The notes below the pieces were generated by a model. The model was not told the origin of the DNA. It saw only the letters and a list, made by a program, of their open reading frames with translations, and searched no databases. Shown here piece by piece: positions 11,734 through 52,936 of a stretch of 64,000 bases of DNA (position 1 is the first letter of the stretch; every line of letters begins with the position of its first letter). Source of the stretch: a virus. The stretch is taken from positions 32,001 through 96,000 of the IMG/VR virus record IMGVR_UViG_3300017754_002544. One strand, written 5' to 3'. The position numbers were made by a program, and so were the translations under genes.

Positions 11734-12175
11734 CGAAGATAAAGATAAAATCATACTAAAGAGATCGACATTACCCGGTGTGGACATGTCGATTTCTGAT
11801 TTTACAATGGCCCATACTGTAAGAGTTGTTGTAACTAAGGTTACTGATACAATGTATAAAAAAGGGTCAAGAACTTTTATTGGAACTAAAGACCAATTGA
11901 CAGATGGAGAAGTTATCCAAGTTGGCAATTTAGGACTTAAGTATAGAGTTATTAAAAGAGAACAATCTTTTACCGCATATGCATTTCTATATCAAATAGA
12001 GAGATTAGATTGTAACTCAACTACAGCTACAGATATTGAAGCAGTGGCTGTTGGTCAAAAGATAAAGTTATTGAGTAGGCTATCTTTTAAACAAATGTTA
12101 AACTACACCTGTGATTTAAGAAATCATCCAAACCATAGTTGTGGGTGTAAGAATAATTGTAATTGTAAAAAATAA
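11723..12175 (+). CDS. Hypothetical protein with Cys/His-rich C-terminal tail
   Basis: 150 aa ORF between giant genes; ends CDLRNHPNHSCGCKNNCNCKK. Confidence 0.6.
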   Translation: MEYNEDKDKIILKRSTLPGVDMSISDFTMAHTVRVVVTKVTDTMYKKGSRTFIGTKDQLTDGEVIQVGNLGLKYRVIKREQSFTAYAFLYQIERLDCNSTTATDIEAVAVGQKIKLLSRLSFKQMLNYTCDLRNHPNHSCGCKNNCNCKK

Positions 12176-12196
12176 AAACCAAGATACGTATAAGAT

Positions 12197-15100
12197 ATGG
12201 CTTGTCAAATAAAAAGAACAAAAGACGGTAAGATAAATAAAGTAATTGCGCCAAATGGAAAAGAGTCAAAATTATTTAACGCTATCCATGGCAATATATT
12301 TTTAGCAGACGCAGATACTTCATTAAAGATTTATACGAATGCTTATACAAATGAGGTAGAAAAAATGTATGAGGGTTCTGATAAGTATAAATATGATAAT
12401 GGAGAACCTCAATTATTTTACAAGGCACAATCTAATAAAGAGTACGACAACTTAGAAGAGTTACTTATAAATGAAGACTTTGGGCCCGTATCTATGGGTT
12501 TTAAAAGTCCAAAGAATGATAAGTTTACACCTATCGCTAAATTTACAACTAAGGGTAGTGAGAAGAATGAGTTCTTAGCATCTAAAGTTAGAGAAGGATT
12601 TTTATCAGCAGATAGAGAGCTTGGAGAAGATGGTGTAACAAGACTTAAAGGTAAGGGTGAATATACAACTTCAAGAGTTGTTAATGCGACTTTTGCTGCT
12701 GACGCATTTATGGCAGAACTTGGAAGTGCTAAAGTTAAAGTGCTTAATGATGGGACTATTGAAATGGAATTCGCTAATGGATATTCATTAGTAGAAAAAG
12801 AAGATGGTCAAACAGAAGTCATAAGAACTGAGTTCATACCTGAGTATTTAAGAGAGAATCCAAATGTTTCAAACAAGGTAGAACTAGTTACGCAATACGT
12901 AATAGAGCATAACAACCCTAGACCATTGGATGTAGCTCCGGTTAAAGCTAATCCTACAAATTCAGATTTAAAATCTTTAGAGACATCTTTATTTGCATTT
13001 ATAAAAAGTTTAGGATTTACTACAACTACTTTAGAAAACTATAAAAAGAATTATAGAACTAAATATGGTAAGGACCCAGATATTCAAGCTTTAATTGACT
13101 TATCAAATAAGGTTGTAGCATTTAAAGAGGGGAATATATCCATAGAGGATTTGACAGAGGAGGTAGCTCACTTAGCTATTGAGGCATTTTCTGATCAGCA
13201 ATCTATCGAAGATGCTATAAAGAATGTACACTTTCATCCTGAATACGCAGAGTTCTATGAATTCTATTTAGGTAAGTATGCTCCATTCTTTAAAGGAGAA
13301 GCATTAGAAAGACAAGTAAGAAAAGAAATACTTGGTAAAATTCTTAAGAGAGAGTTCTTATCTAGATTCGATGGTAAAAATAAAACTGAAGAGCAAAGTA
13401 GAACAACATCTTTCTTGGGAAGAATATGGGAGTGGTTTACTAATTTACTAAATAATAACGTAAAGACATACCATAGAAGAGCTTTAGATGGTCTTAATAA
13501 AAGAATAGCTGATAGCGTACTTAACAACAACACTAAAGACTTCCAAGCTGAGTTCGATGAAAATGTGAACTTCTTCTATAATGCTATGAGTGATAACTCT
13601 AAGACTATTGAGTCGGAGTTTGAAGCTACTAAAAGAATAATTGAAGATTTATTTTCTAGAGGTTTAGAACAACCAACTCCAAATAAAGCGGAATTAGACA
13701 AACTAGTTGCTACTGGAAATTTTGTAGATGTACTAAGTTCAGTTAATACTATTATAGGTATTGCTGAAAATCAGTTAGATATTCTTGAGGCTAACATCAG
13801 GGAGTCCAATAGAAAAAATGAGCTTATTTCTACAAAGGATACACATAGATATGAAGTACTTAAAAATAATATGATTCCAACAATGGAAAATATTATTAAC
13901 CTACTTCCACAAAAGGCAGAGCAGTTAAACATAAGTGATCAAAACCTACTCAATAGGATGAGAACCACAGTATCTGCGTCTGAGCAAATAGCTATAAAGA
14001 TGTCAAGGATTAATCCACTAATGAACAATGATAAGATAAAGTTTGTGGAGAGAACTGTAGAGACAGAGTTAGCTAGAACAGCTTTAAATGATGAAGAAAA
14101 GGCAGAGTTTAAAAGTACTATTGAAGGTGGGTTTAGAGATATTGGATGGCTAGGAAAAATGTTCGGTATTGCTAGTCATAGTAAGAATCCAATCATTCAG
14201 TTACTACATAGATCTATAACAAAACTTATATCAAATACAAATAGAAAATTCAACTCAACGCTTAATAGCACAATGAGTGAAATAGATAAAAAGAATTTGT
14301 ATAGATTTCAAAGAAGTATAATCCATAGAGACGCAAATGGCAACCTCACTAATTACTTCTTATCACCTAAAGATTATCATAGATATGACCAAGAGCTAAG
14401 AGCTAAGGAAGATTCTATAATTGCAAATATAACTGGAAAATCTTTACAAGATGTACAAAGATTAAGAGATAAGTTTAATCCTAGAGAAATAATAAAGGAT
14501 GAAAATTTATTTAGTACATATAAGGAAGAAGTAAAAAAGTGGAGAGATGAAGTTGGCCAGGAGAGAAGATTCACAGATGAATACTATAAGCAAAGAGACG
14601 CTAGATTTGAAAAAGCAAATATATCTGATGAAACTAGAACCTACTTATCTACTAAGAACGTAGGTAGATTTTCTAGAAGAAAGAAGTACATGAATCCTGA
14701 TGGGACTATTGACTTGAATAAACAAACAGAGGCTGAAAAAATCGAAGACTTAAATGACTTCAAACAGCACTTATCTATAAAGAGTGCATACGATACTTCA
14801 GGCAATTTAAAAGCAGGCATTAGAAGAGTTAAGTATAGTGAATTAAGTGCAGAAGAAAGAGCTCAACTTCCATATACTGTAGACCCAACTTACACAGGTG
14901 AACTTACAGTTTTAGAAAGAGGCCAAGATATTGAAGACTTATCAATTGAATCAAGAAGAGCCTTAGATTTATTTAACCTTGATATGTTGTATAGAGAGGA
15001 ATTAAAATCAAAAGCTAGAAACAATAAGCCAATCCAACAATTCCTTGATAACATTTTAGAGATAGAACGTAAGGGAGAGGTAGCTTACGAGTGGGTATTA

Positions 15101-34805: not shown

Positions 34806-34921
34806 TTATGAGAATAGGACTCGAACCTACACCTCACGGCAGGATTTAATGTATATTCTTAGGACATGACCCCCTACCTTTTACCACCCACCATGTGCTC
34901 TACCAATTAAGCTACCTCATT
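34806..34921 (-). ncRNA. tRNA-like RNA with 51-nt insert replacing the anticodon loop
   Basis: Canonical D arm GCTT-AATTGGTA-GAGC and T arm GTAGG-TTCGAGT-CCTAT, 6-bp acceptor stem, stem CATGG/CCGTG closing 51 nt. Confidence 0.65.
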
Positions 34922-38762: not shown

Positions 38763-39859
38763 ATTAATTTATTTTTGATACATAAAGTATTTCTTTATCC
38801 GGAAACCTTTTCTCAAATTCTTTTATAGCTTGAGAGTATCCATCAGCATTAATATTAATTCCCGTACACAACTCTTTACCAATTATGTAGCATACATGAT
38901 AATTATTTTTCATCTTCTGTAAATTTTAATAATTAATAACTATTATTTATTCTTAAGTCTAATTCTCTTTCATAAAAATAAGGACAACACCATTTTCTTT
39001 CATCGCAGTCAAGCTTAACCATTGTTCCATTATAGCAACCCACTTGAATCACAGTCGCCCATCCACTAAGATTAGTCTTAACCCTATCTCCTACTTTTAA
39101 TTCATCAAATGATTTCATATTTAAAATCATTAGTTTGTCCTATAGTATCACCTACATCATTACTATGAAGAACTATTAATATATTTTCTTTGTCGTTTAA
39201 TAATGATTTAAACCATTCAAGTTCTTCTTCATCAGCATGACTATACCATAAGTCATCTTCAACTTCTATTGTTGCTTCAATTTTTATTTTCATTACTCTG
39301 ATTTATAAGTTATTATTTTTAATATTTAAATTAACTATTTAACACCAATCCCTTCTCCATCAATGTATAATAACTTTACTATTTCACCATTACCTATAAT
39401 CGTTAAAGTGGGGTATTCATCATTTGGAATAGGATGAGTTGGCTTTATTTCATAATTATATTCATAGCAAATTTTATCAACTTTATCAATAAATTCTTTC
39501 ATTTTATTTGTCATTCTATTCTGATTTAAAAGTTTTACACATTGATTCAAAACTGTTGTTGTATACAAATCTTCTCATCTTTGGATTCATTGACATAAAT
39601 GTTGCCCAACATCTTTTTCTTAACCAATCAGGTAGTTGTTTACTGTACTTCATTCTATTCTGATTTAAAGGTTTTTTCTTCACAACAAATATTAGGCATA
39701 ATACCAAATACTTCCTCAATAGTTGCTTCATCATATCCATCAAGTTTTAATGCTAATTCAATAGCATTTCTTATCGCATAAGCATAAGTACAAGTGTGTG
39801 TATCAATAGTCACTAATGGTCTTTGAGTGCTATCAAAATCTCTATTGTCAATAATTATT

Positions 39860-39961
39860 CTCATTCTATTCTGATTTAAAGGTTTATAAATTCTATAACT
39901 ACCAATGGTTGTTCTTCATTCTCTGATTTTAGTCTCATATTTATTCTGATTTAAAGGTTTC
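39860..39961. repeat. 102-bp exact direct repeat, copy 1
   Basis: Identical to 51237-51338 by base-by-base reading. Confidence 0.9.
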
Positions 39962-40138
39962 TTGGTAGTATTCTTCTGCATAAAATCTTGCTGATTCACA
40001 AGTAGGATAACAATGGTCTGATGCAGCATCAATTATTTGTTGTTTTTCCATTTCTTTGGATTGTTTAAATGCTTCTTTTATAGGCATTGTTCCTTCACTT
40101 AATTGATATTCCAACCACTCTACTGCTGTCTGTTTCAT
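39941..40138 (-). CDS. AVEWL...FKSE mini-protein paralog
   Basis: MKQTAVEWL...KEMEKQQIIDA...YYQETFKSE. Confidence 0.75.
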   Translation of the reverse strand: MKQTAVEWLEYQLSEGTMPIKEAFKQSKEMEKQQIIDAASDHCYPTCESARFYAEEYYQETFKSE

Positions 40139-40156
40139 CTTATTCTGATTTAAAGG

Positions 40157-40342
40157 TTATCCCCAAATATTATATATTATTATAACACAAGTTGCAAATC
40201 CACCAATTATTGAAATAGCATAAAAAACAATAGGCATTATACCTGTTTGTTGCTCATACCATTGTCCAAAAATTGGTATTAATAGTGATGTGATTGAAAC
40301 ACAAAATATTACTAAAATTGTTTTTAAAATTCTTTTATCCAT
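40157..40342 (-). CDS. Small two-TM membrane protein
   Basis: Two hydrophobic segments; flanked on both sides by the junction repeat. Confidence 0.6.
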   Translation of the reverse strand: MDKRILKTILVIFCVSITSLLIPIFGQWYEQQTGIMPIVFYAISIIGGFATCVIIIYNIWG

Positions 40343-40346
40343 CTTA

Positions 40347-40571
40347 TTATAATTTAAAAGTTTTATTGTAATAATGATTAAAACCAAGACCATCTTCCCC
40401 TGAGTCTAAAATTCCAAAGCAATAGGAATCTTCCATCTGCTCCTTCTCCATTGCTTTGGCTTGTTCAAATCTTTTAATCCAATGTGTATCAAGACCTCCC
40501 CATTCTTTAAAGATTTCTTGAAATTCATTTTCTAACCATTCTACTGCTGTTTGTTTTTCCATTCTTTCCAT
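40347..40571 (-). CDS. AVEWL mini-protein paralog
   Basis: KQTAVEWL...QAKAMEKEQM...YYNKTFKL. Confidence 0.75.
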   Translation of the reverse strand: MERMEKQTAVEWLENEFQEIFKEWGGLDTHWIKRFEQAKAMEKEQMEDSYCFGILDSGEDGLGFNHYYNKTFKL

Positions 40572-40696
40572 GTGTCAAAGTCTTTTAGTTTTTCCATTTG
40601 TTCCTGCATCCATTTAGCACCTGCTATCCAGTTATCTGTTTTACATAAATTAGGATCAGCTAAGTTAGCTGCAGCTTCTTCTATTTCTTTATCCAT
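40541..40696 (-). CDS. MDKE...AGAKW mini-protein paralog (51 aa)
   Basis: Read manually: MDKEIEEAAAN...WIAGAKWMQEQM; paralog of 52709-52936. Confidence 0.65.
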   Translation of the reverse strand: MDKEIEEAAANLADPNLCKTDNWIAGAKWMQEQMEKLKDFDTWKEWKNKQQ

Positions 40697-40873
40697 ATCA
40701 AATCTTTTTAAGTATTAACAAATTTCAAAGAAAATATACCTAATGTAGCAATAGATGCTACACCTAATATAAATACAGCAACTTCTAAACCATGTATTTT
40801 CCATACATAAGACACTGCTAACACAAGTATTAAAAATTGAATAATTATAAAAAATATTATCAGTGCTACCATA

Positions 40874-41353
40874 TCAAATCTTTTTAGTTAATATAAGACA
40901 TCCTTCTGAGTCAAGTTTTGGTACTAAACAATCAGACATTTTTTCTATATCAGAGTGCTTCCACATAAGATAATCTTCACGCATCTCAATCTCAACTTCT
41001 ATCTCACTTGGTTGTAATAAAGCAACTAATTCGGTAAATGTTCTGTTAGGATGATTTTCTAAGGAGTTAAATGCTTTTCTAATATTAGATAAAGTAAACA
41101 CCTTATCTTTATTCAACTCCATTGCTTTGTTGAAGCCTGCAATAAAATCTTCTGGATCATAAGAATGTGCAAATTTACTTCCATATTCCTCAGCCAACTT
41201 CTCAATATCAAATATTCCAAATAGTGAGTCACAGTTTTCAAATGATAACAGATACATTTCTTTTGAGGGCACTCTTGTTCCTGTGCTTCCAATTTGTTTA
41301 TCTTCTACAAACAATCGGTAGTGGTCTTTGTCTTTCCTAAGTTTTGCTTTCAT
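40874..41353 (-). CDS. Hypothetical protein
   Basis: 159 aa ORF containing a LAEEY...FIAGF segment. Confidence 0.6.
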   Translation of the reverse strand: MKAKLRKDKDHYRLFVEDKQIGSTGTRVPSKEMYLLSFENCDSLFGIFDIEKLAEEYGSKFAHSYDPEDFIAGFNKAMELNKDKVFTLSNIRKAFNSLENHPNRTFTELVALLQPSEIEVEIEMREDYLMWKHSDIEKMSDCLVPKLDSEGCLILTKKI

Positions 41354-41840
41354 CTTCTAATTTTTTAAGTTGTTCTTTAAATGTTTCCAAAGTAATTGTT
41401 ACATTTAAAATATTTACACCTTCGGTTAATAATTCAGTCAGTAAATCAATCTGTGCCTTAATCTTTATGATGTTTACCCATCTATAGAATTCTTCTTCAT
41501 TAATATTTTTCATATTATTTTCTTTTACTTTTACCTACTATATAACCAAAAATAAACCATAGAACAAACCCTATGTGTGCTATAACTAATACCAATGTCA
41601 TACTATAAATTATTTTTAATGTACTCTAATACTTCAGGAGAAGCACTAGCTTTAAACTTACTCTGATTAATGTGATCAAACATTCTATAGAATACCATAG
41701 CATTGTCTTGTATATTATCAAAGCTGTTTATTCTATCTAGTTTCTCCGTGACATAACCATACTGGTTATCATAAGTATTCCATATATCTGTGGCAATACT
41801 TTTCATCTCATTAAATATTTCTTGACTTGGTGTTTCCATA

Positions 41841-42203
41841 TTATTTTAGTTTTAAAATTTCTGTTACAATATACTGCACTAGATATGCATATACTTCTTC
41901 TGTTTCATATCCTGGTTGTATACCTATTCTACTTAATATAGAATAAGCTGCATGATAAGCTTCATGTGCTACTAAACCAATCATTTTTGCATCTCTGCCT
42001 ATTTTGTCTCTAAATCTAACTATAACAAATCCATCACTATGAGTAGCAGTTCTAGCATCTGATCTTTTCCAATCATCAAATGCAAAATCAAACTGCTCTC
42101 TAGTAAACTTACTACATACAGCATCATATAGCTTATCATCTGATTGATTTATAGATACTAATACATCTGTATTAAATACATCTATTGGTATTACTTTGAA
42201 CAT
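41841..42203 (-). CDS. Small zincin-like HExxH protein
   Basis: AHEAYH...EEVYAY. Confidence 0.6.
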   Translation of the reverse strand: MFKVIPIDVFNTDVLVSINQSDDKLYDAVCSKFTREQFDFAFDDWKRSDARTATHSDGFVIVRFRDKIGRDAKMIGLVAHEAYHAAYSILSRIGIQPGYETEEVYAYLVQYIVTEILKLK

Positions 42204-42231
42204 TTTATTCTCATTTAAAATATTAAAAAAA

Positions 42232-42270
42232 GGAGAGGTGTCTCCGACGACCAAGTGTTAACACCTCTCC
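42232..42270 (-). terminator. Terminator within early array
   Basis: ggagaggtgt...acacctctcc 10-bp stem, T run on the minus strand. Confidence 0.75.
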
Positions 42271-42871
42271 ATAAGCTACAAAAACAGTATGAATACTGAG
42301 TTTGGATGAGCAGTTTAATATTATGCTCAGAATAATTATTACTTATTTGTAAGTATTTATTTCTTTATTAGTCAACCTTGAAAGTAGCACCAGAGCATTA
42401 TAATCATGTGTTCTTTTTTTATCTATTACTTCTAATAAATTATCAATGTCATAGAGAACTTCCCATAAGTACTCTTCCCTCCTGTTTTCTTCAATAAATG
42501 CTTGTTCAACTTCCTGTATTAAATCAATTACTATTTGACTATAATTTTCCATATTATAAAAAGAATCATGACTTAGTTCTTTTAATGTTTCCATATTACT
42601 TAGTTTTAAATATTAAATTATTTGAAGGACTCTTTGTATTTCCCATACTTTTTGTTGAGCAGCATATTTCATCAATTTTTCAAACACATTCTCTAATGTA
42701 TCAGTATCATATACCTTGATAGAATCACCATTTAACTTAAAAGAATTTCTGTCTTCTTCAAATCCTAAATTTTTTAAAGCATTTTTTATTTCATTAATTC
42801 TATTCTCTTGCTTAGATGCTTTTTGATTTTCTCTCATTTTTTGTAGAATTTCTTCTGGTATGTGTGTCATA

Positions 42872-43186
42872 TTACTTAGTTTTAGTTAATACTTTATGTT
42901 TATATCTTCTGTGGTCTCTCATAGTAGCAGCCCATTCTTCACCACCTTTGTAGTAGATCATAGTACCACCTCTAGCAGCTCTGTTTGCTAAATCTCTTTC
43001 TTTCTTCTTAGGATCCTGTATAAAAGTGATTAGTCTCCTGGATACTTTAAACATCTTGGCTAGCTTCCTCTGACTTAGCCCTTGTTTAGTCCAGTATAAA
43101 ACCATCTCTTTTTGACAAGGAAGAAGCTTAACTCTCCTGTCTAAGAATGGAGAATCAAGCTTCATTTTATCTGTCTTGTAAGGCAT
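42872..43186 (-). CDS. HTH DNA-binding protein
   Basis: GLSQRKLAKMFKVSRRLI. Confidence 0.65.
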   Translation of the reverse strand: MPYKTDKMKLDSPFLDRRVKLLPCQKEMVLYWTKQGLSQRKLAKMFKVSRRLITFIQDPKKKERDLANRAARGGTMIYYKGGEEWAATMRDHRRYKHKVLTKTK

Positions 43187-43189
43187 TAT

Positions 43190-43603
43190 TTAAAGACTAT
43201 CTAAACATTTTTGCACCCATTTAGTACTAAACCAACAGAAACCTTCACCTAAAAACACTTTTGCATTTTTAGATATAGATATAATATCAATTGTTTGATC
43301 TGAAAATGTTAGTGTTTTAGATTCTTTGGTCTCTATAACTGATTTAACTAAATTAAAAAAATCAATAACATCTTGTTTAGAAGAAAACTTTATTGTTTTA
43401 TACTCTACTATTTGTTGATACTGGCAATCTCTAAATATTAAAATATATTCATGTATAGAAGTAGAATCTATCGCTTTATATATAGCATGAAACCCCATTT
43501 TATGTTGATAAATCCGATCATACTTAGGAGTATCTTCTACTTTAATTTGTGCGTTAGTATTTAAACTAAAAAATATTGCTAGTGTTAAAATTAAATTTTT
43601 CAT
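43190..43603 (-). CDS. Exported hypothetical protein
   Basis: Signal peptide MKNLILTLAIFFSLNTNA|Q. Confidence 0.6.
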   Translation of the reverse strand: MKNLILTLAIFFSLNTNAQIKVEDTPKYDRIYQHKMGFHAIYKAIDSTSIHEYILIFRDCQYQQIVEYKTIKFSSKQDVIDFFNLVKSVIETKESKTLTFSDQTIDIISISKNAKVFLGEGFCWFSTKWVQKCLDSL

Positions 43604-44218
43604 ACTTTTTATTTTATTATTTGTTTTTCAATTGTATTTAATAAACTTTGAACGTCCTCAAACTTTGAGAATCTAATTGCAGGAAAGGTATCAAAAAATT
43701 CTACATACCATTCATCTTCATTATCTATTTCAGTATTTGCATTAGATATTAACTCAAGACCATTTACTATCTTGTAGACATAGTATCTAAATGGCTTATC
43801 TCCACTTTCTTGAGATGATACATATATCTTTTCAAATTTTAGTAATTCTATTTCTTTTTCTGTCATTTTGAAAATATTAAAATTAAAACTATTCCTAATA
43901 CGATTGCTAATATAGTCAATTGTATCATATCTTTGCAATCTTCTTTCATAATTTTTTTGACAAATCTATTAACATTTGCTCCTGATCACTTGTGAGTAAG
44001 TATCTAGACTTGTTTATCTTATCTATAACCTCGTGCCATTCATAGTCAATAGCTGATGGAGATGTTACTTCGTTTATATTTCTTCTAGAAATTATAACAA
44101 AACCATCTTCTTCTAGCATTTCAGCTAACTCCTTTTTTTCTCTATCACATAAGTCATAATAAATATCGTCTATGTCTAAATCTACGGTTACTTCTGTTCT
44201 CATAATTTACATTTTAAA

Positions 44219-44731
44219 TTAAACACTTAATTCTTCCTTATTTACAATTGATTTTAGTTTTTCAACATATGTAGGATCACCTGCATAGTTATTCTTTAGG
44301 TATTGATAATAATCCTTCTTACTTTTAATCTTAAATACAAATGTTGATTGGTATAGTGCGTAATCATACACCGATTGCTCCCAGGATGAATACTTAGCGT
44401 GTTTTAAGTATTCTCCGGAATTTGTAGTAGGTCTAATACTAGCGACCTTCATACCGAATAAGTTGTTTCCAACGCTAAAAGACTTAGATTTAAAATGTCC
44501 TGATTCCAATACAGCTTGAGCATAAACTATCTCAGGATACTTTAAATTTAACTTATCTATCAACTCTTTTAGTTTTTCTTGAGAGAACTCCTCTCCATTT
44601 TTATAAACAAATACAATCTTTTCAGTTGGTTTTTTATAGTCTTCAACAACCTTAGACAACTTTTCTGATTCTTTACAAGAACCTACTAGCAATACTATTG
44701 CTAGAGCTTTTAATACATTTCCTATTTTCAT
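44219..44731 (-). CDS. GH73 glucosaminidase-like lipoprotein
   Basis: Lipobox-like LLVGSC; AQAVLESG, NNLFGMK, YAGDPTY. Confidence 0.8.
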   Translation of the reverse strand: MKIGNVLKALAIVLLVGSCKESEKLSKVVEDYKKPTEKIVFVYKNGEEFSQEKLKELIDKLNLKYPEIVYAQAVLESGHFKSKSFSVGNNLFGMKVASIRPTTNSGEYLKHAKYSSWEQSVYDYALYQSTFVFKIKSKKDYYQYLKNNYAGDPTYVEKLKSIVNKEELSV

Positions 44732-45579
44732 AACTTCTTTCCTTATTTCGTATCACTATCATCGTTTTATTATCTACGCCATTTATTGTTTATGAAACCA
44801 TCGGCCATACAAATAAGCCAAGAGCCTCCAATAACAATAATTAATATCCATTGTATTGCATTAGGTTGAGCAGCTAAAATCATATCTCTATTGTTTTTGA
44901 TAAGTTAATAATTAATTCGTCATAATTCTTAATCATTTCATCAGCTACAAGTTTTAGTCTATCATCTGTTGTAGTTTTGAAATTACTATCTAAATGGTAT
45001 TGTAAAGTCCTCTGAGGAATCTCAATACCAATACTCTTTAGTACATGGTGAAGGTCTAGAGTACTTATTCTTCTTTCTTTCATTCTGTAATAAACTTTTC
45101 TATCTAATGCTTCTGTTGAACTATTCATCTATTTCATTTTTTATTTTTTTTAATACATCATCGGCTGCGTCAGCCATTCTATTTAAGTCATCTTCTATTT
45201 CAGTACTTCCAAAGTTCTCTACTTCATTCCTCACTTTCATATACTTAGCTAACATTCTCAATCGTCTAGGTGGAATTATTAACAAAGTGTTTGCAAGTTC
45301 AATGGAATATTTTTTCAAAACTTCATACTCTTTATCAGTTAACATATCATTACTTTTTTATGTATATAGGTTGATCAATTACTTGATACTCACAAGAGTC
45401 CTTATCCTCTATAGCTTTTATTCCTTCAACAGAGTATATTGATACACTAACTATAGAAAAGGTAAAAGCAATTATAATAGGAATTAAATACTTAGGATTA
45501 AGCTTTTCAGACAATAACATAATTGCATAGAGGCAAGCTCCATAAATAAAAGATAAACATATTATTAAGTGTAGTAGCA

Positions 45580-45942
45580 TCATAGCTTATTTAATTTTTC
45601 ATTAATCCTTTCTTTAACAATTTCTATATCATCATTTGTTGGTACATAGTCATTGTATAATTCTTTTGGTACACTGTCCCAAGCATCTGAGTAGTTGGTG
45701 ACGTTAAAGCCTCTACTTAAACACTCATCGTATATAGATAAATATCTAATCTTAAGATACTTAAGCTTATCATAGAAGAACTTAACATGACCTTTACCTA
45801 ATGTGAACTTGTCTGGTTTACCATCCAATGAATATCTTCCTGACTTTATTACATTTGGTATCCTTTTTATTTCTCTATGTTCAGCTATCAAATGTTTGCT
45901 ATGCAAATTCTTTGGAGGTATTCCACAATTAATTCTAGTCAT
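45580..45942 (-). CDS. denV: Pyrimidine-dimer DNA glycosylase (T4 endonuclease V)
   Basis: MTRIN...HLIAEHREIKRI...FTLGKGHVKFFYDKL..L..RY...ECL.RGF. Confidence 0.92.
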   Translation of the reverse strand: MTRINCGIPPKNLHSKHLIAEHREIKRIPNVIKSGRYSLDGKPDKFTLGKGHVKFFYDKLKYLKIRYLSIYDECLSRGFNVTNYSDAWDSVPKELYNDYVPTNDDIEIVKERINEKLNKL

Positions 45943-46113
45943 TCTGTATCTCTAAATAATGTTTAGCTTTATCTATTGCTCTATAATAGTAGTCCCAGGT
46001 TAATCCCATTCTACTTAGTTCATCCTGGAATTCAGTACACGTATTTTTATTATCTAACATCACTGTGTAAAATAATAATGTTCTAATTAAATCTTTCTCC
46101 ATTCTATTATGAT

Positions 46114-46335
46114 TTAAAGATTTTCTATTTCTTGTTTAACTTCTTGCCAGTATTTAATTATTGAATAATATTCAGAATTTAATATACCAGTATAATTATT
46201 ATAATTTATGACTTCATTAACTGCAATTAAAGCAATTAATATAGCATCTTCTGTATATATTGTTACGTGTCTTTGCTCGAATAAATCATCTTTAAATTTA
46301 TTTACCAACTCTTTTGCTTTCTCTTTTGGTGTCAT
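46114..46335 (-). CDS. Small phage protein (MTPKEKAKEL...YWQEVKQEI family)
   Basis: 73 aa; bounded by junction repeats. Confidence 0.65.
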   Translation of the reverse strand: MTPKEKAKELVNKFKDDLFEQRHVTIYTEDAILIALIAVNEVINYNNYTGILNSEYYSIIKYWQEVKQEIENL

Positions 46336-46336
46336 T

Positions 46337-46651
46337 TTATTCTGATTTACTTTCTACAATCTCAATACAGTATTTAAGACAAGCAAGTTCTGCTTCTTCA
46401 TAGGTGTACTCACCAGTATCTAACAATTCATCCATAATCCAAATGTGTTTCAATCTGTGCTTTTCTCTAAACCATCTAAATGCTTGTTGAAATAGTGGTG
46501 CTTTAAAATCAATTGTTCTTGCTTCATCATCAATAAGGTCTGCAAGAATATAGTCATTTTCACCTTTCCACCAATACATAAAACAAGGCTCATCAAATCC
46601 AAGTTGCTTCATTCTTAAAGCTAACTCATAAGATACAAATTCTTTTTTCAT
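46337..46651 (-). CDS. Small phage protein (KQLGFDEPC...QAFRWFREK family)
   Basis: Start at 46651 directly after a junction repeat; ends SKSE. Confidence 0.65.
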   Translation of the reverse strand: MKKEFVSYELALRMKQLGFDEPCFMYWWKGENDYILADLIDDEARTIDFKAPLFQQAFRWFREKHRLKHIWIMDELLDTGEYTYEEAELACLKYCIEIVESKSE

Positions 46652-46652
46652 G

Positions 46653-46889
46653 CTATTCTGATTTAAATGTTTCGTTGTAGTATTGTTCTGCTTTTTTATC
46701 ATCATATCCATAATAAACATTTTCTGTAATTAATCCTTTGTCAAAAGCATCAATAATCTGCTGTTTCTCCATTTCTTTTGCTTGTTGAACTAAGTCCCTA
46801 AATAATTGAGAATGTTTAACATGAGGGAAATCTTTTAGGTTTTTAGCTAACCACTCTACTGCACTTTTTTGGTTTTCCATACTAATCAT
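46653..46889 (-). CDS. AVEWL...FKSE mini-protein paralog
   Basis: QKSAVEWL...QAKEMEKQQIIDA...AEQYYNETFKSE. Confidence 0.75.
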   Translation of the reverse strand: MISMENQKSAVEWLAKNLKDFPHVKHSQLFRDLVQQAKEMEKQQIIDAFDKGLITENVYYGYDDKKAEQYYNETFKSE

Positions 46890-47332
46890 TTATTGAAAGT
46901 CCTGCATCATTTAAGAATTCTCTTATAGTTTCTCTTATTGATTCATAAACTTCGTATTCATTTTCTTTTAGTTCTTCATACTTCATTTTGGATCTACAAT
47001 GCTGGTCCAAGTCCCATAAGATATACTTATACTTGTGACCATTTATCGCATCTCTGATGTCCTCTGCTTCTTCTATAGAATCAAATTCTAATATAACTTT
47101 TCCCATACTTCATCTATATTATAAGTTTCATTTGGATATTCTTCTTTTACGAATGAATCAACCTCTGTAGAATCGTCAAGATAATAATCATCTGGCTCAG
47201 ATAAGAATTGTTTTAAAGCTAAACATATCGCTGATTGTAAGTCTTCAGCCTCAACTTCTATTCTTTTATAAGATTCCCATCTAATAGGAATACTATATGT
47301 TTTATTCACTTTTCCCATAACTTATTATTTAT

Positions 47333-48190
47333 TTATACTTTTAGGTTTTTAAATATGTGAGCAATAACATCAACAGTCCATCCATCACCTAGCAAACAAG
47401 CAGCATCATTTCTAGATAGAAGTTTAGTGTAACCATTAGGTACATTCTGTGCCCTCTCCATTTCATTTTGATTCATGTATCTTACATCACCTTCTTCAGC
47501 TAACTCATAGTTATCTTTAAGTCTATTGTAAGTCTCTTCATCTTTAAATATAACTTGCCAAAATCCGTATTTGAAATATCTTCTAGCAATTTTTATTGGA
47601 TTCTTTAGAGGTCTCGAATAAGATTCTAATAAGCACATACCCTTATCTCTATCAACATAACCCTCATCAAGAATATCTCTTAGATTAATTCCTTTATCTT
47701 GAGGTAAGTCTTCTATTGGAATATTAGTCCAATAAAATCTATCTCTCAATACACCACTAACCAAAGAACTATTTATTCTAATAGGCTGAACACCAAGCTC
47801 TTCGCTAATTAAATCTTGCCATTCTTTTTTCATTCTAACATTTTCCAATAAGAAATACTTAGGCTTAAGTTCTTTAAGTAATCTTACATATTCCCAAAAC
47901 AATCCTGACTTCTCACCATCAGCACCCTTCTGAACTCTATTAGCCCGGCTAAAGTCTTGACAAGGAGAACCTCCAATAAGTAAATCAATCTTAGGCAAAT
48001 TATTTGCAGATAATTTCGTAACGTCACCCACCTGGTGTGTATTAGGAAAGTTAGATTGAGTAACTGCCATAGCGTGTGGTTTTATTTCACTAGCAAAGTA
48101 GTTCTCATAGTTTATACCCAATTTGTTGAGGGCGATTTGTCCGCAACTCATACCATCGAACAAACTTAATACATTTTTAATTTGATTCAT
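47333..48190 (-). CDS. DNA (cytosine-5) methyltransferase
   Basis: LFDGMSCG, GGSPCQ, LENV, R.R.YW, LGDGW. Confidence 0.92.
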   Translation of the reverse strand: MNQIKNVLSLFDGMSCGQIALNKLGINYENYFASEIKPHAMAVTQSNFPNTHQVGDVTKLSANNLPKIDLLIGGSPCQDFSRANRVQKGADGEKSGLFWEYVRLLKELKPKYFLLENVRMKKEWQDLISEELGVQPIRINSSLVSGVLRDRFYWTNIPIEDLPQDKGINLRDILDEGYVDRDKGMCLLESYSRPLKNPIKIARRYFKYGFWQVIFKDEETYNRLKDNYELAEEGDVRYMNQNEMERAQNVPNGYTKLLSRNDAACLLGDGWTVDVIAHIFKNLKV

Positions 48191-48196
48191 AACTTT

Positions 48197-49087
48197 TTAT
48201 TTTAAATTTTTAAATATGTGTACTAGAACATCAACTGTCCAACCATTACCTAGCATTCTTTTTCTTTGAGACTCTGAGACACCCTTTGTATAATTGTAAG
48301 GAACTGTTTGAAGTCTTTCGTACTCTATTATATTAAGCTCTCTTAAGTCACCATCTACAACTACACCATAGTTACAAGCAGTGTTTAGAGTATTTGATTT
48401 ACCTACTGATACTCTGCCTCTTCTTGTATTACTGTTAGGAACTTCTAAGTTAACACAATCTCCATCATTAGCTATTAAGTATCCAAGCTTTGTAGCATTC
48501 TTAATCTTGAAAGACTTGCCAAGCTTTTCAATAACAACTGGATGGTCATTGAGTATATGTTCAGTTCCTTGAGGACACAAGATATCTAATATAGTAACTC
48601 CTTTATCATTTATGTTTTTATCGAAAGGTATATTAGTCCAATACAATCTTTGTCTTTTTTGTGCTGAAAAATATTTGCTATCAATCATTATAGGTTCAAC
48701 ACCTAAAGCTTTTGTGATAATGTCTTCCCACTCTTTCTTCATAACAACATTCTCAAGTAAGAAGTACTTGGGCTTAACTTCATTAAGAACTCTTACGTAT
48801 TCCCAAAACAATTTACTCTTGCCATCGAATCCTGAACCATCTCCTGATCGACTAAAGGATTGACAAGGACTGCCACCAATTAGTAAATCAATTTTATCCT
48901 CACCAAAATTACCACCTTTAACATCTAGTACTGAACCAATATGTATTGTATTTGGATAATTCTTTTGAGCAATTTGAATTGCCCATTTATCTATCTCTGA
49001 TGCATAGTAGTCATCTACTTTAACACCTGCCTTGTTGAGGGCGATTTGTCCACATGACATTCCGTCAAATAAGCTTAGTACATTCAT
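48197..49087 (-). CDS. DNA (cytosine-5) methyltransferase
   Basis: LFDGMSCG, GGSPCQ, LENV, QKRQRLYW, LGNGW. Confidence 0.92.
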   Translation of the reverse strand: MNVLSLFDGMSCGQIALNKAGVKVDDYYASEIDKWAIQIAQKNYPNTIHIGSVLDVKGGNFGEDKIDLLIGGSPCQSFSRSGDGSGFDGKSKLFWEYVRVLNEVKPKYFLLENVVMKKEWEDIITKALGVEPIMIDSKYFSAQKRQRLYWTNIPFDKNINDKGVTILDILCPQGTEHILNDHPVVIEKLGKSFKIKNATKLGYLIANDGDCVNLEVPNSNTRRGRVSVGKSNTLNTACNYGVVVDGDLRELNIIEYERLQTVPYNYTKGVSESQRKRMLGNGWTVDVLVHIFKNLK

Positions 49088-50383
49088 ATTTTAATTTTAT
49101 TTATAAAGATAAGTAATCTATTTCAATCATTTGTATATATTCCCATGAAAATCTTTCTTTCAATGCTGCAAGTAGTTCGTCATTGTCATATTCATCTAAA
49201 CCATCACGTTCTCTTTGCAATATTTCGCTGATAGCTTCTCGTATTTGATTATCATCTAGAGTAGTTATTAAAAAGAAATCTTCTTCCTCGTATGCTGTTG
49301 TGTTAATTCTTACTGTTCTCATGCTTATTATTTTTGTTATACCATTCAATGAATTGACATACAACGTAGTGCATATCTTCCAATTTAATAGAAATTGGTC
49401 TATCTATCACGGTTTCAATATCACGTGTATCTAATTCAACTCCATCCATACTATATATCTTATCAACAATAGACATCAACCAATCCCATGAGGTGTGGTA
49501 TTTTAATTCGTGTGCACAAAAGAATTCAACCTGAATGTCATTTAATTTTTCAGGATTTTGAAATTCAATTGCATACACAAATTCTCCGTTCTCAGTTTGT
49601 TCTTCTTCATGCCCCATGAACTCTGCAATCATTCGATTTTTTTCTTCTATTGTTGTCATGATTATTTTAATTAAAATTCATATTCATTTCCATCTGCATC
49701 GTAGTAGCAGTCATAGTTATCTTTATTGATTTCTTCATCCCATTCAGTGTAGTAAAACTCATCCAATTCGTATGCTTCTTTCAATATGAATTCATCAGAC
49801 AAATGATCCATACCACCTCTGTTTCTAAGATATTCAACTAAATGTTTTTTTTCGCTGAAATATATCTCTCCATCATTTACTACGTATCCTGCGTTAATAC
49901 CTCTGCCAGTAGCATCACAGACTCTTGCAAACTTTTCCATAGCTATTTAATCTTTTAAAGTTAAACCATCATCTTGTGCAACCATATCAATTGCAAACCA
50001 TATTTGCTCCATTGTTGCACCATTAGTCAGAGCTTCATTGATGATACTCTGTGCTTGATCATCGTCATCGCAATTGTATCTATCTTTAACATCATCTATG
50101 TGCCATAGATTATCTACGAAGTAACCTGCCTTTCTTAATACTTCCTTTGCTTTCTGTATCTCGTTCATGTTATTGGTATAAAGATTTATAATCAGTTACA
50201 AAGTTTATAAGCTCTTGACTATCACCCTCACTGTGACTGTCAATCATCTCACTATCCGTTACTATTTTAGAATAGATTATATACTTATCGTTTTCTTCTA
50301 CTTCTACTGAAACAAACCAAGATCCAAATCCTTGTTTCTTTACATTAATGTGATATACATTCATATTATTTATTTTTATTAAT

Positions 50384-51052
50384 TTACACTTCCTCTTTTA
50401 ATTTTTCCATCACTTCTTCACAAGGTACTTTTTCATTAGTCCAATAGTCATAGAACTCTGTGATATATCCATCTAAAATATCTTGTTCTATCTCGTAACT
50501 ATCTTTATGTTCATACAAATATTCATGGATACCTCCACAATATTCATTCGACTTAAATAGTTTTGCATCGGTATATCCACCACGAGCATCAGCACCATTG
50601 TGTATTTGTACTATGAAATAGCTATCTCCATCAATTTCAATAGAACTATATTGTAGTATCTGAGATAAGTCTGAGTCGTAGTTGTAAGTATTTGTAACAT
50701 ACTTAACTTCAACTGAATAGTTTTCTATTAGATAATTCCAAGCTTCTGAACTAACACCATATACCTTATCATCATCAGCATCCCAATTGTCAGGATTAGT
50801 ATTAAGTTTATTGAACTCTTCACATATACTATCTAAGTCTAATCCACATAGGTAATGATATACACTAACTGTTCTATAAATATATCCGGTTTTTCTATCA
50901 AAGGAATAAGATTCTTCATCCTCGTTTTCAAAATCATCGATAGATTTTGTAGCATTTCTTTGCCACATTCTACCATCAGTACCACCTGAATCTAAGAAGT
51001 GAACTCCTGTATTTTCAGTAAGCATACTATAAACTATATCTTTTACTCTCAT
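50384..51052 (-). CDS. Conserved-looking hypothetical protein
   Basis: ENTG.HFLDSGG..GR.WQRN...QIHNGADARGGYTD. Confidence 0.6.
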   Translation of the reverse strand: MRVKDIVYSMLTENTGVHFLDSGGTDGRMWQRNATKSIDDFENEDEESYSFDRKTGYIYRTVSVYHYLCGLDLDSICEEFNKLNTNPDNWDADDDKVYGVSSEAWNYLIENYSVEVKYVTNTYNYDSDLSQILQYSSIEIDGDSYFIVQIHNGADARGGYTDAKLFKSNEYCGGIHEYLYEHKDSYEIEQDILDGYITEFYDYWTNEKVPCEEVMEKLKEEV

Positions 51053-51236
51053 TCTATTTTTATTTTAGTCATTTTCTATATTAAACTTATTGCATAAAAT
51101 TTCTCTAATCACATCTTGTGCATCGAACTCTGTTGGGTCATCTGTATCTGTACAATCTTTTATTATACCTTCTTCAACCATTTTCCCAACGATAATAATT
51201 GACAAATCTTTAATGTCATCTAATGTTTTAATTGTG

Positions 51237-51338
51237 CTCATTCTATTCTGATTTAAAGGTTTATAAATTCTATAACTACCAATGGTTGTTCTTCATTCTC
51301 TGATTTTAGTCTCATATTTATTCTGATTTAAAGGTTTC
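51237..51338. repeat. 102-bp exact direct repeat, copy 2 (part of junction cluster 3)
   Basis: Identical to 39860-39961; cores at 51245 and 51320, with another core at 51823. Confidence 0.9.
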
Positions 51339-51539
51339 GTTGTAGTATTGTTCAGGATTTTTTAACCTGCCTTTATATGGGTGGATACATTCTAATTCAT
51401 AGTTATCTGCAAAATCTATCATCTGCTCTTTCTCCATTTCTTTGGCTTGTTTAATCCATATATTAGGTATATGCACTGAATCTTTAGTCAATATTTCAAT
51501 CAACCATTCTACTGCTGTCTGTTTTTCCATTCTTTCCAT
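51318..51539 (-). CDS. AVEWL...FKSE mini-protein paralog
   Basis: MERMEKQTAVEWL...QAKEMEKEQMID...EQYYNETFKSE. Confidence 0.75.
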   Translation of the reverse strand: MERMEKQTAVEWLIEILTKDSVHIPNIWIKQAKEMEKEQMIDFADNYELECIHPYKGRLKNPEQYYNETFKSE

Positions 51540-51820
51540 ATTATTTAATTTTATATAGTGAGTAACTGTTTATGATTGATTCTTTATTAACACCTGCGGT
51601 TACTTTACTACTAGTCCATTCACCATTAGTACGTACAAAAGCTTCACCTTTTTCACTTGCTGCTTTCAATGCAGCTTCTACATGGATCTTAGCAAATTCA
51701 ATTGCTTTATCATAAGAACAAACAGGGGTAAATTCACCTTCTTTATTCTTTACAGAATAAGCTGTATATAAACCATTATCTAACTCAAAAAACTCTTCTG
51801 CTGTTGGTATTTTTTCCATT

Positions 51821-52204
51821 CTATTCTGATTTAAAAAGTTTTCTACCAATTGTAACTAATGAATCGTATTCTATTTTATCAACATTATTATTGTCAGTAT
51901 CCATCCAATTAGGAGATACTTTTGGATTATATGTTAGCCTATTTTTATCTAAGTTATGACTACCACCACCAATGCATATGTCTACTTTTTGAGACATTAT
52001 CCAAGCACATACAGTTTTTGTACCCCCATCATATATCTTTTTAGCTGAACCTTTTTGATTATATAGTTTACAATTAGTTAATTTTAATTCATAATCTTCA
52101 GGATCAAAAAACTTAACATCTTTTGTTTCAGTATTTTCAACCCTCCATTTCATAAAGTTTTCTCCTCTTCCTAAATGAAATCTAGTTTTGAATATCCTTT
52201 TCAT
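51821..52204 (-). CDS. Hypothetical protein ending in FKSE
   Basis: RFHLGRGENFMKW; unrelated to the AVEWL family but with the same terminus. Confidence 0.65.
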   Translation of the reverse strand: MKRIFKTRFHLGRGENFMKWRVENTETKDVKFFDPEDYELKLTNCKLYNQKGSAKKIYDGGTKTVCAWIMSQKVDICIGGGSHNLDKNRLTYNPKVSPNWMDTDNNNVDKIEYDSLVTIGRKLFKSE

Positions 52205-52482
52205 ATAACATGATACCTTTCACCATTAACAGAAAACTTAGTTACCTCTAATAGATTAATCATTCTATGCTCATTTTTATCCATATCAAATACAGTCAGT
52301 AATCCTTTACCTAAAGGTCTATAAGACATACCATTTCCATTAACTCCTTTCTTTACGTTTCTACGAGCAGTCATCCTTCTGAATGTACCATCTTTCTTTT
52401 TAAACTCTACAAAGAAAATTTTACCATTACCTACTGAATCAATTAATTTAAATCCAGCTAAATCTTTACTGATTGTTTTCAT
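52201..52482 (-). CDS. SH3-fold (WYL_2-like) protein
   Basis: F.VEFKKKDGT.R.M.AR...VFDM....R. Confidence 0.55.
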   Translation of the reverse strand: MKTISKDLAGFKLIDSVGNGKIFFVEFKKKDGTFRRMTARRNVKKGVNGNGMSYRPLGKGLLTVFDMDKNEHRMINLLEVTKFSVNGERYHVI

Positions 52483-52708
52483 AATTAAACGATTTTGATG
52501 ATAGTGCTAAACGCAACATATCTGTTAAACAATTCCATATACAATTAATATTGAATGATGACCGTGTGAACAAACACCATCAGGCTCTACCTCACATCCT
52601 TCACTACAACAAGCAGGAACAATAGAATCAAAGCAATAAGATTCAATCATATCAACTACTGAATCGTATCCATACTCTTCAGCAACTTCTTCTAAACTAA
52701 TTTTCATT

Positions 52709-52936
52709 CTACTTCTTTTTAAATTGTTCAAACCATTTATTCCAATCTTTATCAAAATCTCCAATATTAGTTGCTGAAAATGGTGTGTAGTTTACTTTAA
52801 ACGCTTTTTTTAAATCTTCCTCACTATACATTCTTTCAGCTTGCCATTTAGCACCTGCCATAAAACTTTCTCTTCTAGTTCCAATAACAGGTTGTGTTAC
52901 CCAATTATTAGCAGCTTTTTCTAATTCTTTATCCAT
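52709..52936 (-). CDS. MDKE...AGAKW mini-protein paralog
   Basis: MDKELEKAA...FMAGAKWQAERMYSEEDL. Confidence 0.65.
   Translation of the reverse strand: MDKELEKAANNWVTQPVIGTRRESFMAGAKWQAERMYSEEDLKKAFKVNYTPFSATNIGDFDKDWNKWFEQFKKK

Follow-up and report, generated by a model that had tools for sequence, protein, structure and literature searches.

Why does one and the same short DNA sequence recur at the junctions between small phage genes? The question is raised by a stretch of 64,000 nucleotides (nt), referred to here as the window, which comprises bases 32001-96000 of the IMG/VR virus record IMGVR_UViG_3300017754_002544, a genome of 124,113 bp with direct terminal repeats that is rated complete and has a GC content of ~31%. 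On the minus strand, ~95 mostly tiny open reading frames (ORFs; called from the first ATG with at least 40 codons) are arranged head to tail over ~26.5-59 kb of the window, and within this array a block of 23 nt is found repeatedly where one gene ends and the next begins. By a modest preference we read this block as a short-homology recombination linker between small accessory genes, with the mosaic AVEWL gene family as its hub, a reading drawn from sequence comparisons.

A junction block constrained as nucleic acid

The consensus of the block is AACC TTTAAATCAGAA TAG A ATG, also written AACC-TTTAAATCAGAATAG-A-ATG, and its generalised form is (T/A)AACC TTTAAATCAGAA TAR R ATG. A search of the window with the 19-mer TTTAAATCAGAATAGAATG gave 10 matches with up to 3 mismatches, all on the minus strand, with 0.16 expected and 0 of 100 shuffles reaching 10. 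The whole 124,113-bp genome contains 9 matches with up to 2 mismatches, all on the reverse strand and none of them outside 39.5-51.8 kb of the window (backwards control 0). By a gapped scan of 38-54 kb, 16 copies ending in ATG were identified (14 clear and 2 weak), all on the minus strand between 39.3 and 52.7 kb and each ending at the ATG of an ORF, in agreement with the at least 12 minus-strand copies at gene junctions which the initial annotation of the window had described. The copies are listed below in window coordinates; terminal residues are those directly before the stop codon of the upstream ORF.

39291..39311, minus strand: degenerate copy AACTTATAAATCAGAGTAATG, non-coding, 41 nt past the upstream stop; its ATG opens ORF 39293..39105
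39512..39534, minus strand: copy with 1 error; end ..KTFKSE of ORF 39653..39516; its ATG opens ORF 39514..39335
39651..39673, minus strand: exact copy; end ..KTFKSE of ORF 39864..39655; its ATG opens ORF 39653..39516; mosaic joint
39862..39884, minus strand: exact copy; end ..NL of mini-ORF 39938..39876; its ATG opens ORF 39864..39655
39936..39959, minus strand: copy with TAAATATG ending; end ..ETFKSE of AVEWL paralog 40138..39941; its ATG opens a 20-codon mini-ORF
40136..40158, minus strand: copy of the TAAGATG form; the upstream ORF stops at the TAA of T-AACC (third frame), otherwise non-coding; its ATG opens AVEWL paralog 40138..39941
40340..40362, minus strand: degenerate copy with 5 substitutions; end ..KTFKL of AVEWL paralog 40571..40347; its ATG (40342) opens a small membrane-like ORF
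42201..42224, minus strand: degenerate copy directly after a terminator-like hairpin and T-run (42245..42232); its ATG opens ORF 42203..41841
46100..46122, minus strand: copy with 2 errors; end ..ENL of ORF 46335..46114 (phrog_21441); its ATG opens ORF 46102..45935
46333..46353, minus strand: degenerate copy; end ..SKSE of ORF 46651..46337; its ATG opens ORF 46335..46114
46649..46671, minus strand: copy with 2 errors; end ..ETFKSE of AVEWL paralog 46889..46653; its ATG opens ORF 46651..46337
51050-51070, minus strand: weak copy with 6 errors, from the gapped scan
51239..51261, minus strand: exact copy; end ..NL of mini-ORF 51315..51253; its ATG opens ORF 51241..51065
51313..51336, minus strand: copy with TAAATATG ending, inside a 130-nt duplicate; end ..ETFKSE of AVEWL paralog 51539..51318
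51817..51840, minus strand: copy; end ..LFKSE of an unrelated ORF of 127 amino acids (aa), 52204..51821; its ATG opens ORF 51819..51541
52705..52728, minus strand: weak relative with 5 errors; end ..EQFKKK, then TAGAATG; between ORFs 52936..52709 and 52707..52525

The block holds stop codons in three frames (TAG, TAA and, when it begins with TAACC, a further TAA), followed by ATG. In the window, FKSE is the end of six ORFs (52204..51821, 51539..51318, 46889..46653, 40138..39941, 39864..39655 and 39653..39516), L is the end of ORF 46335..46114 and of both 20-codon mini-ORFs, and the copies 40136-40158 and 39291-39311 are located outside the upstream ORF. The reading as a terminal L had been reported for 46114 and 39876, and the location outside the ORF for 40142 and 39295; both were seen at these sites. 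The proteins ending in FKSE had moreover been taken as unrelated to each other. This holds for three of them (127, 69 and 45 aa), which have only the last 4-7 residues in common with others (E >0.1), whereas the remaining ones belong to one paralogous family of four members (E 1e-8 to 1e-15), the fourth of which ends in TFKL. Beyond the window, many unrelated proteins end in FKSE, one of them 778 aa long.

The same picture was obtained from retrieved phage contigs, in which the 12-mer core has 274 unique contexts. The upstream stop was located at +12 (TAG/TAA, frame 1) in 169 contexts, at +2 (TAA, frame 2) in 39 and at -5 (TAA of TAACC, frame 3) in 22, and the ATG at +16 in 243. An ORF of at least 30 codons is opened by 232 of 267 ATGs, and AACC is retained in every frame class. 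Because upstream stops occur at +12, +2 and -5 and the ATG at +16, the block provides one stop per frame plus a start, and the constraint on it acts on the nucleic acid; the latter, together with a stop codon and the next ATG in each full copy, had been proposed from the window copies. The 16-mer AACCTTTAAATCAGAA, in which neither a stop nor an ATG is specified, has an ATG within 10 nt in 233 of 243 unique contexts, and the motif is thus not common away from junctions.

Three observations on the copies are added here. An identical 20-codon mini-ORF, which includes the shortened linker core TAAAATCAGAGAATG, is located between two copies at 39876-39938 and 51253-51315 (minus strand), within a 130-nt duplicate (51229-51358 versus 39852-39981, 95% identical), and may have been left behind by a deletion from one linker to another. 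Tandem AGAAT units make up the 3′ half of the linker, and this repeat is able to expand; a copy in locus L034 near 11532 (minus strand) reads ..CAGAATAGAATAGAATG and has one additional AGAAT unit. The terminator-like hairpin and T-run at 42232-42245 (minus strand) lies 139 nt past the previous ORF, in one of the few non-coding gaps of the array.

Mosaic joints, cassettes and carrier phages

It had been proposed beforehand that breakpoints of gene gain and loss between relatives be tested for enrichment at the motif. For this comparison loci were aligned all versus all, and ends of high-scoring segment pairs (HSPs) were counted for HSPs of at least 150 nt and at least 80% identity if they did not coincide with a locus end. 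Within 10 nt of a copy were found 421 of 3,096 HSP ends (13.6%), in a zone which represents 0.82% of the sequence. The resulting enrichment is 16.5-fold, compared with 4.8-fold for same-sized zones at ordinary gene starts (36.5% of HSP ends in 7.7% of the sequence).

Junction pairs were scored in 191 sequences by requiring a 150-nt flank of at least 95% identity and determining whether the opposite flank was homologous. With the left flank identical, the right flank was homologous in 27/71 pairs at the block, in 200/247 at ordinary junctions within 2 kb and in 165/179 farther away; in the mirror test with the right flank identical, the left one was homologous in 30/68, 211/262 and 195/218, respectively. 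Due to the fact that the pairs are non-independent, flanks were clustered, and a cluster was termed discordant if it held a pair whose other flank has no detectable similarity. Discordant left clusters amounted to 20/35 at the block versus 20/115 nearby (Fisher p 1.3e-5) and 6/109 far away, and discordant right clusters to 12/28 versus 22/130 (p 0.005) and 13/122. At 85% identity the contrast was weaker (27/36 versus 64/130), because diverged orthologues were scored as different partners.

The breakpoints were located by mapping of the first mismatch, ungapped windows being too coarse. In pairs with identical left and unrelated right flanks the first mismatch was positioned at offsets 14-24 from the core start (31 of 32), and in pairs with identical right and unrelated left flanks 14-22 nt back from the core end (51 of 57), so that the breakpoints fall in the block and are scattered over its whole length and its edges and not confined to one position. 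Two such joints involve the window: ORF 39864..39655 is 95% identical in loci L119 and L138 through the block, which is then followed by three unrelated genes, and the DNA of ORF 46651..46337 is ~93-95% identical to locus L177, where a different junction precedes it.

Single-gene units delimited by the copies, as the initial annotation had assumed, were also observed. Loci L053 and L106 have the arrangement X-linker-cassette-linker-Y and locus L082 has X-linker-Y with flanks at least 95% identical, the difference being exactly one unit of 215 nt that holds a phrog_21441-type gene. Two further contig pairs have such clean insertions or deletions, with two and three junctions in between. As judged from these alignments, mosaicism as well as the insertion and deletion of cassettes is concentrated at the block and precisely delimited by it. 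Among 36 pairs of consecutive units, none had arisen by tandem duplication of a cassette, a single trivial partial match aside.

The distance between neighbouring copies ranges from 74 to 1458 nt (median 228 nt, 116 pairs). A CRISPR array was considered and rejected, as these spacings are ORF-bearing and differ from regular short non-coding spacers. Copies provide the start of 225 distinct proteins, which form 103 clusters. Pfam matches were obtained for 8 of 101 cassette representatives (ThyX, spore photoproduct lyase, helix-turn-helix (HTH) proteins, RepL and domains of unknown function), one cassette family has a Cro/C1-type HTH, and most of the PHROG families matched have no known function. 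The cargo is not confined to proteins: at L130:6640-6815 (minus strand) two linker copies enclose a tRNA-like gene of ~150 nt as a cassette. This gene has acceptor, D and T arms, with a long insert replacing the anticodon arm, and was not called by ARAGORN. The upstream copy retains its ATG, which is followed only by AAA TAG, and the other copy is placed directly after the T-run behind the gene. At 34806-34921 of the window, a 116-nt Rfam tRNA match with 40 bits may be a similar object. Known RNA families of the Rfam type in the window were limited to two tRNA matches, both outside the repeat region.

The exact 19-mer was found in at least 119 IMG/VR stretches and the 16-mer in at least 120. 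Ten whole carrier records were analysed, of which those of 32, 35 and 65 kb are complete with terminal repeats, those of 32 and 81 kb are partial, and the others have sizes of 114, 118, 121, 160 and 224 kb. The number of copies per record is 1-7, and they are always tightly clustered on a single strand. Among five large carriers, the terminase of three is 25-27% identical to that of the phage studied here and two have no detectable match to it. In 596 Gb of bacterial and archaeal genomes, 9 exact 19-mer matches correspond to chance level; 7 of them have neither the AACC prefix nor the gene context and 2 are genuine, one in a Chitinophagaceae and one in a Bacteroidota metagenome-assembled genome (MAG). 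These two MAG contigs, together with weak DNA matches of the genome to Flavobacterium phages, suggest that the hosts of the carriers are probably Bacteroidota. The block had no match among the cultured phages of the INPHARED set, and a literature search gave neither its 15-mer nor, by keywords, any report on such a junction repeat.

The AVEWL family as a candidate hub

An AVEWL paralog is present in each of the three clusters of copies in the window, two in the first and one in each of the others:

39941..40138, minus strand: AVEWL paralog of 65 aa, with linker copies on both sides
40347..40571, minus strand: AVEWL paralog of 74 aa
46653..46889, minus strand: AVEWL paralog of 78 aa
51318..51539, minus strand: AVEWL paralog of 73 aa, modelled as three helices (predicted local distance difference test, pLDDT, 78), with no fold match

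The family consists of proteins of 52-105 aa with the constant blocks MKTAVEWL, EQAKEMEKEQI and YYNETFKSE and unrelated segments between them. In about half of the exact copies the linker is the 3′ end of an AVEWL gene, and the YYNETFKSE tail is found before 49 of 106 frame-1 contexts (167 contexts in all). Of the 10 other carrier records, 9 contain AVEWL genes, the remaining one (G004) having three linker copies and no AVEWL gene. No match to Pfam or PHROG and no PDB fold match at E <=0.001 was obtained for AVEWL proteins, and a search of the Atlas gave viral hypothetical clusters only, the family being phage-only.

In the AVEWL genes of loci L009-L198 and of the window, the constant blocks retain rare codons, namely GCC in 17/20, GAG in 18/20, CAG in 17/20, TAC in 48/49, AAC in 42/49 and ACC in 45/49 cases, with a background use of these codons of 8-36% (GCC 8%, ACC 10%, TAC 34%). 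They are GC-ending despite the background of 31% GC, which could be due to selection acting on the DNA or to GC-biased repair at hot spots of recombination. Moreover, the variable segments are reassorted. Among 95 AVEWL proteins, all 9 clusters of N-terminal segments with at least two members pair with more than one cluster of C-terminal segments, and all 6 such C-terminal clusters pair with more than one N-terminal cluster. Codon retention and segment reassortment together mean that nucleotide anchors work inside the AVEWL gene too.

A comparable arrangement is known from the mini-cassette conversion of pilE and pilS in Neisseria, in which a bacterial expression locus and silent copies give rise to antigenic variation. 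The likeness lies in the alternation of constant nucleotide blocks with hypervariable segments, whereby short homologies allow in-frame reassortment; in contrast, every AVEWL copy looks as if it could be expressed, and the exchange partners belong to different phage genomes.

As a side observation, the first 24 nt of the AVEWL gene (ATG..AVEW) are matched at 96% in the cultured Baltic Flavobacterium phages vB_FspP_elemo (MT497017 and 67 other records). These phages are the nearest culturable handle on the family; the linker is not matched there.

Explanations of the block and its genomic setting

In the mechanism that we prefer, the linker would be a common homology patch. Through ordinary homology-dependent recombination or annealing at this patch, single-gene cassettes would be joined, inserted, deleted and exchanged, both within one phage and between unrelated phages that encounter each other in shared hosts, which are probably Bacteroidota. 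As the block carries stops in three frames and an ATG, any crossover in it would leave two intact, tightly coupled genes, whatever the upstream frame. The two other constant blocks of AVEWL would act likewise inside the gene and shuffle its variable segments. The starting points of this mechanism are direct results of the comparisons: frame independence, spread over lineages, breakpoints inside the block and clean cassette insertions and deletions. What we infer in addition is that the recombination would be homologous rather than site-specific, and that the block would persist because each exchange copies it together with useful cargo and not through a separate expression role. Plain homology-dependent exchange is favoured by the scattered breakpoints and by the lack of a hairpin or dyad, of tyrosine or serine recombinases and of a shared recombinase. 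When 8 copies with 25-nt flanks were folded as DNA, none of the 8 gave a hairpin or dyad (z -1.0 to +1.4) and no structure was common to them.

Such a mechanism has long been envisaged. Phage mosaicism has been debated for decades as the outcome either of homologous exchange at short linkers or of random illegitimate joins sorted by selection. In the linker idea of Botstein's modular evolution, short conserved sequences at gene boundaries let unrelated modules swap by homologous recombination, and conserved boundary sequences were reported in lambdoid phages. To our knowledge, clear linkers have been shown mainly for the promoter-early stem-loops (PeSLs) of T4-type phages. The block fits the Botstein linker better than any curated family: the same short gene-boundary sequence occurs in otherwise unrelated genomes, and mosaic joints favour it over other boundaries. 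The difference is that the linker idea is a concept with sparse examples on the scale of functional modules, whereas the present case concerns single small genes as units and a defined 23-mer as linker, whose association with breakpoints is measured. One defined and countable 23-mer makes the linker hypothesis of phage mosaicism testable. It may furthermore serve as a simple marker for accessory-gene cargo in metagenomic phages (>100 gene families, nearly all of unknown function), and it suggests a ready-made joint for the insertion of genes into Bacteroidota phages.

Several points weigh against this interpretation. Any conserved 23-mer would attract crossovers, and mosaicism does not show that recombination drives the conservation of the block. 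The comparison loci were all chosen by carrying the motif, and the exchange is deduced from comparisons of contigs. Close relatives of the genome are lacking, the 222-aa neighbour protein having relatives of at most 56% identity. Of the discordant contig pairs, 62/67 do not rejoin within five junctions, and therefore most events are one-sided joints and not neat cassette swaps. Ordinary junctions break too, in 17-19% of cases, so that the block represents a 3-6-fold excess and is not exclusive. No common enzyme was identified: the UvsX-like recombinase of this phage is not present in any of the 5 smaller carriers. Finally, the two copies directly after terminator-like elements (42245..42232 and L130) would fit a promoter.

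Only tentatively do we extend the interpretation to an integrase-free cassette system of uncultured Bacteroidota phages, in which the 23-nt linker would be a common currency, any small gene or RNA gene could be pasted without risk to the reading frame across lineages of 32-224 kb by the general recombination machinery of phages or hosts, and the constant anchors would build combinatorial AVEWL variants. Selection for exchange, or self-propagation by it, would then maintain the linker, and not a role as expression signal.

The block could instead be primarily an expression signal that is conserved for this role, recombination being a by-product as with PeSLs, an explanation that we judge rather unlikely. 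Candidates would be a phage-type promoter from which leaderless or near-leaderless mRNAs start, a translational operator to which an RNA-binding repressor like RegA binds, a signal that lets terminating ribosomes restart, or an RNase site. The block is indeed always co-directional with the genes and has a fixed register with the ATG (+16 in 243/274), one copy directly follows the terminator-like hairpin and T-run at 42245..42232, and in L130 one copy directly follows the T-run of the tRNA-like gene and another precedes this RNA gene. Variation among 63 bystander copies is uneven, TAAA, TA and ATG varying little or never, but this fits plain GC-to-AT decay, too. The constant blocks inside the AVEWL genes, which do not lie at junctions, are conserved at synonymous sites in the same way; these intragenic anchors are hard to reconcile with a junction-specific expression signal. 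A host-type signal can be set aside, because the exact block occurs at chance level in bacterial genomes. As to a phage-specific signal, the complete genome contains no sigma-70 region 2, no RNA polymerase was recognised among ORFs of at least 170 aa, the T7-type search being made without a positive control, and the carriers are unrelated lineages for which no shared specificity factor was found. A restart signal is not supported by pairing with Bacteroidota 16S rRNA, as the duplex with the block has -12.1 kcal/mol versus a shuffle mean of -12.2 kcal/mol, and that with the 3′ tail -6.9 versus -6.4. Moreover, ~80 of the ~95 array junctions lack the block and are just as compact.

The PeSL, the nearest analogue known, is itself described as a regulatory cassette, which is in favour of an expression role. 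According to their descriptions, PeSLs are intergenic cassettes of T4-type phages with a strong sigma-70-like promoter and a terminator stem-loop, at which recombination occurs and for which mini-circles were shown (Arbiol et al. 2010, PMC2839356; Comeau et al. 2014, PMC4122927). As described there, the two systems have in common short repeats between small non-essential genes in plastic regions of the genome of a large lytic-type phage, and ends of insertions, deletions and replacements at the repeats, the exchange being ascribed to homologous recombination. The block differs from the PeSLs so described in that it has 23 nt, overlaps coding sequence, supplies three-frame stops and the next ATG, has no stem-loop and no shown promoter, and is common letter for letter to terminase-unrelated lineages of 32-224 kb, PeSLs being found within one phage group. 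It is thus new in comparison to the PeSL descriptions in being shorter, coding-compatible in every frame, free of a stem-loop and spread over unrelated lineages. A PeSL-type terminator was not detected in the 8 folded copies; one degenerate copy follows a separate terminator-like hairpin. Promoter-like consensus sites in the region numbered 86 versus 89.2 expected, with a consensus that excludes the promoters of Bacteroidota, the probable host. For the crAss-like Cellulophaga phage phi14:2, a preprint describes early transcripts without a common upstream motif.

Stoperators of cluster A mycobacteriophages, such as the L5 gp71 sites, bind the repressor of temperate phages and are spread over the genome. 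They resemble the block as asymmetric short sites with many copies in one orientation to transcription, at gene junctions and overlapping stop and start codons. The block, in contrast, is found in three short clusters here and is common to unrelated lineages, and the genome has no integrase; no repressor turned up in it, and no search aimed at repressors was made.

That a dedicated site-specific nuclease or recombinase, encoded by phage, cassette or host, acts on the block in the manner of an integron integrase or a homing endonuclease appears very improbable to us. In integrons, attC sites are recombined by the IntI integrase, and attI and Pc are present. The array resembles them in its single, mostly promoterless-looking genes which are each bounded by a repeat, in its unit size (median spacing 228 nt) and in the presence or absence of cassettes between identical flanks. 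The very high identity of the block across unrelated phages, the company of AVEWL genes in 9/10 other carriers and a GIY-YIG/HNH-type homing endonuclease gene, located in the genome outside the window, could also speak for such a system. However, neither tyrosine recombinases (PF00589; controls detected 14/14) nor serine recombinases (PF00239) gave any match in the complete 124-kb genome. The attC-like imperfect palindrome or folded strand is lacking as well (8/8 copies), as are attI and Pc, and the block is an exact sequence that gives a translation stop and start, which attC does not. The breakpoints are found all along the block and at its edges, carrier G004 lacks AVEWL genes but has three copies, and the predicted AVEWL structure is that of a small three-helix protein with no fold match at E <=0.001. 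The integron-like mechanism of the initial annotation was therefore not upheld, the motif being found also in lineages without the UvsX-like recombinase. Searching the genome for recombination enzymes, as it had suggested, gave the UvsX-like recombinase, a helicase and exonucleases, and no integrase or resolvase.

We give equally little credence to a functionless block, made up of the AVEWL 3′ end and the next start, spread by duplication and gene fusion and brought into other frames by small indels: the YYNETFKSE tails before about half of the exact copies, the AVEWL paralog in each window cluster and the existence of decayed copies agree with it, but at least 29 of the 167 contexts are in the second frame, including a different conserved family ending in ..QEI.NL, 32 further contexts have a short or no upstream ORF, FKSE ends many unrelated proteins up to the one of 778 aa, identity ends at the block edges with unrelated flanks, a given cassette can be preceded by the block in one locus and not in another (93 right-flank matches connect motif to non-motif junctions), and the rare codon ACC is retained.

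In the genome, the array is flanked by genes for a helicase, exonucleases, ribonucleotide reductase and an endolysin-like protein and by two tandem cytosine methyltransferase-like paralogs. The rest of the genome includes terminase, a 921-aa portal, giant virion proteins, a family A-like polymerase, GroEL and the UvsX-like recombinase; as regards a T4-type affiliation, the UvsX-like recombinase stands beside PHROG matches of other kinds (portal, giant virion proteins, family A-like polymerase). The giant plus-strand ORFs at G000:C1:11575-49971 (partly window 4660-17971) have 2108, 1258, 1091, 936, 1682, 2357 and 1924 aa, with PHROG matches mostly just to 'virion structural' or unknown. A crAss-like virion RNA polymerase was considered for them and rejected, as they are without the D[FY]DxD motif and their PHROG names are virion structural or unknown. 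The two adjacent methyltransferase-like paralogs at 47333-48190 and 48197-49087 (minus strand) have 285 and 296 aa. They begin in the manner typical of cytosine-5 methyltransferases, end almost identically (..HIFKNLK) and have common DNA repeats of 71 and 135 nt with 75-77% identity.

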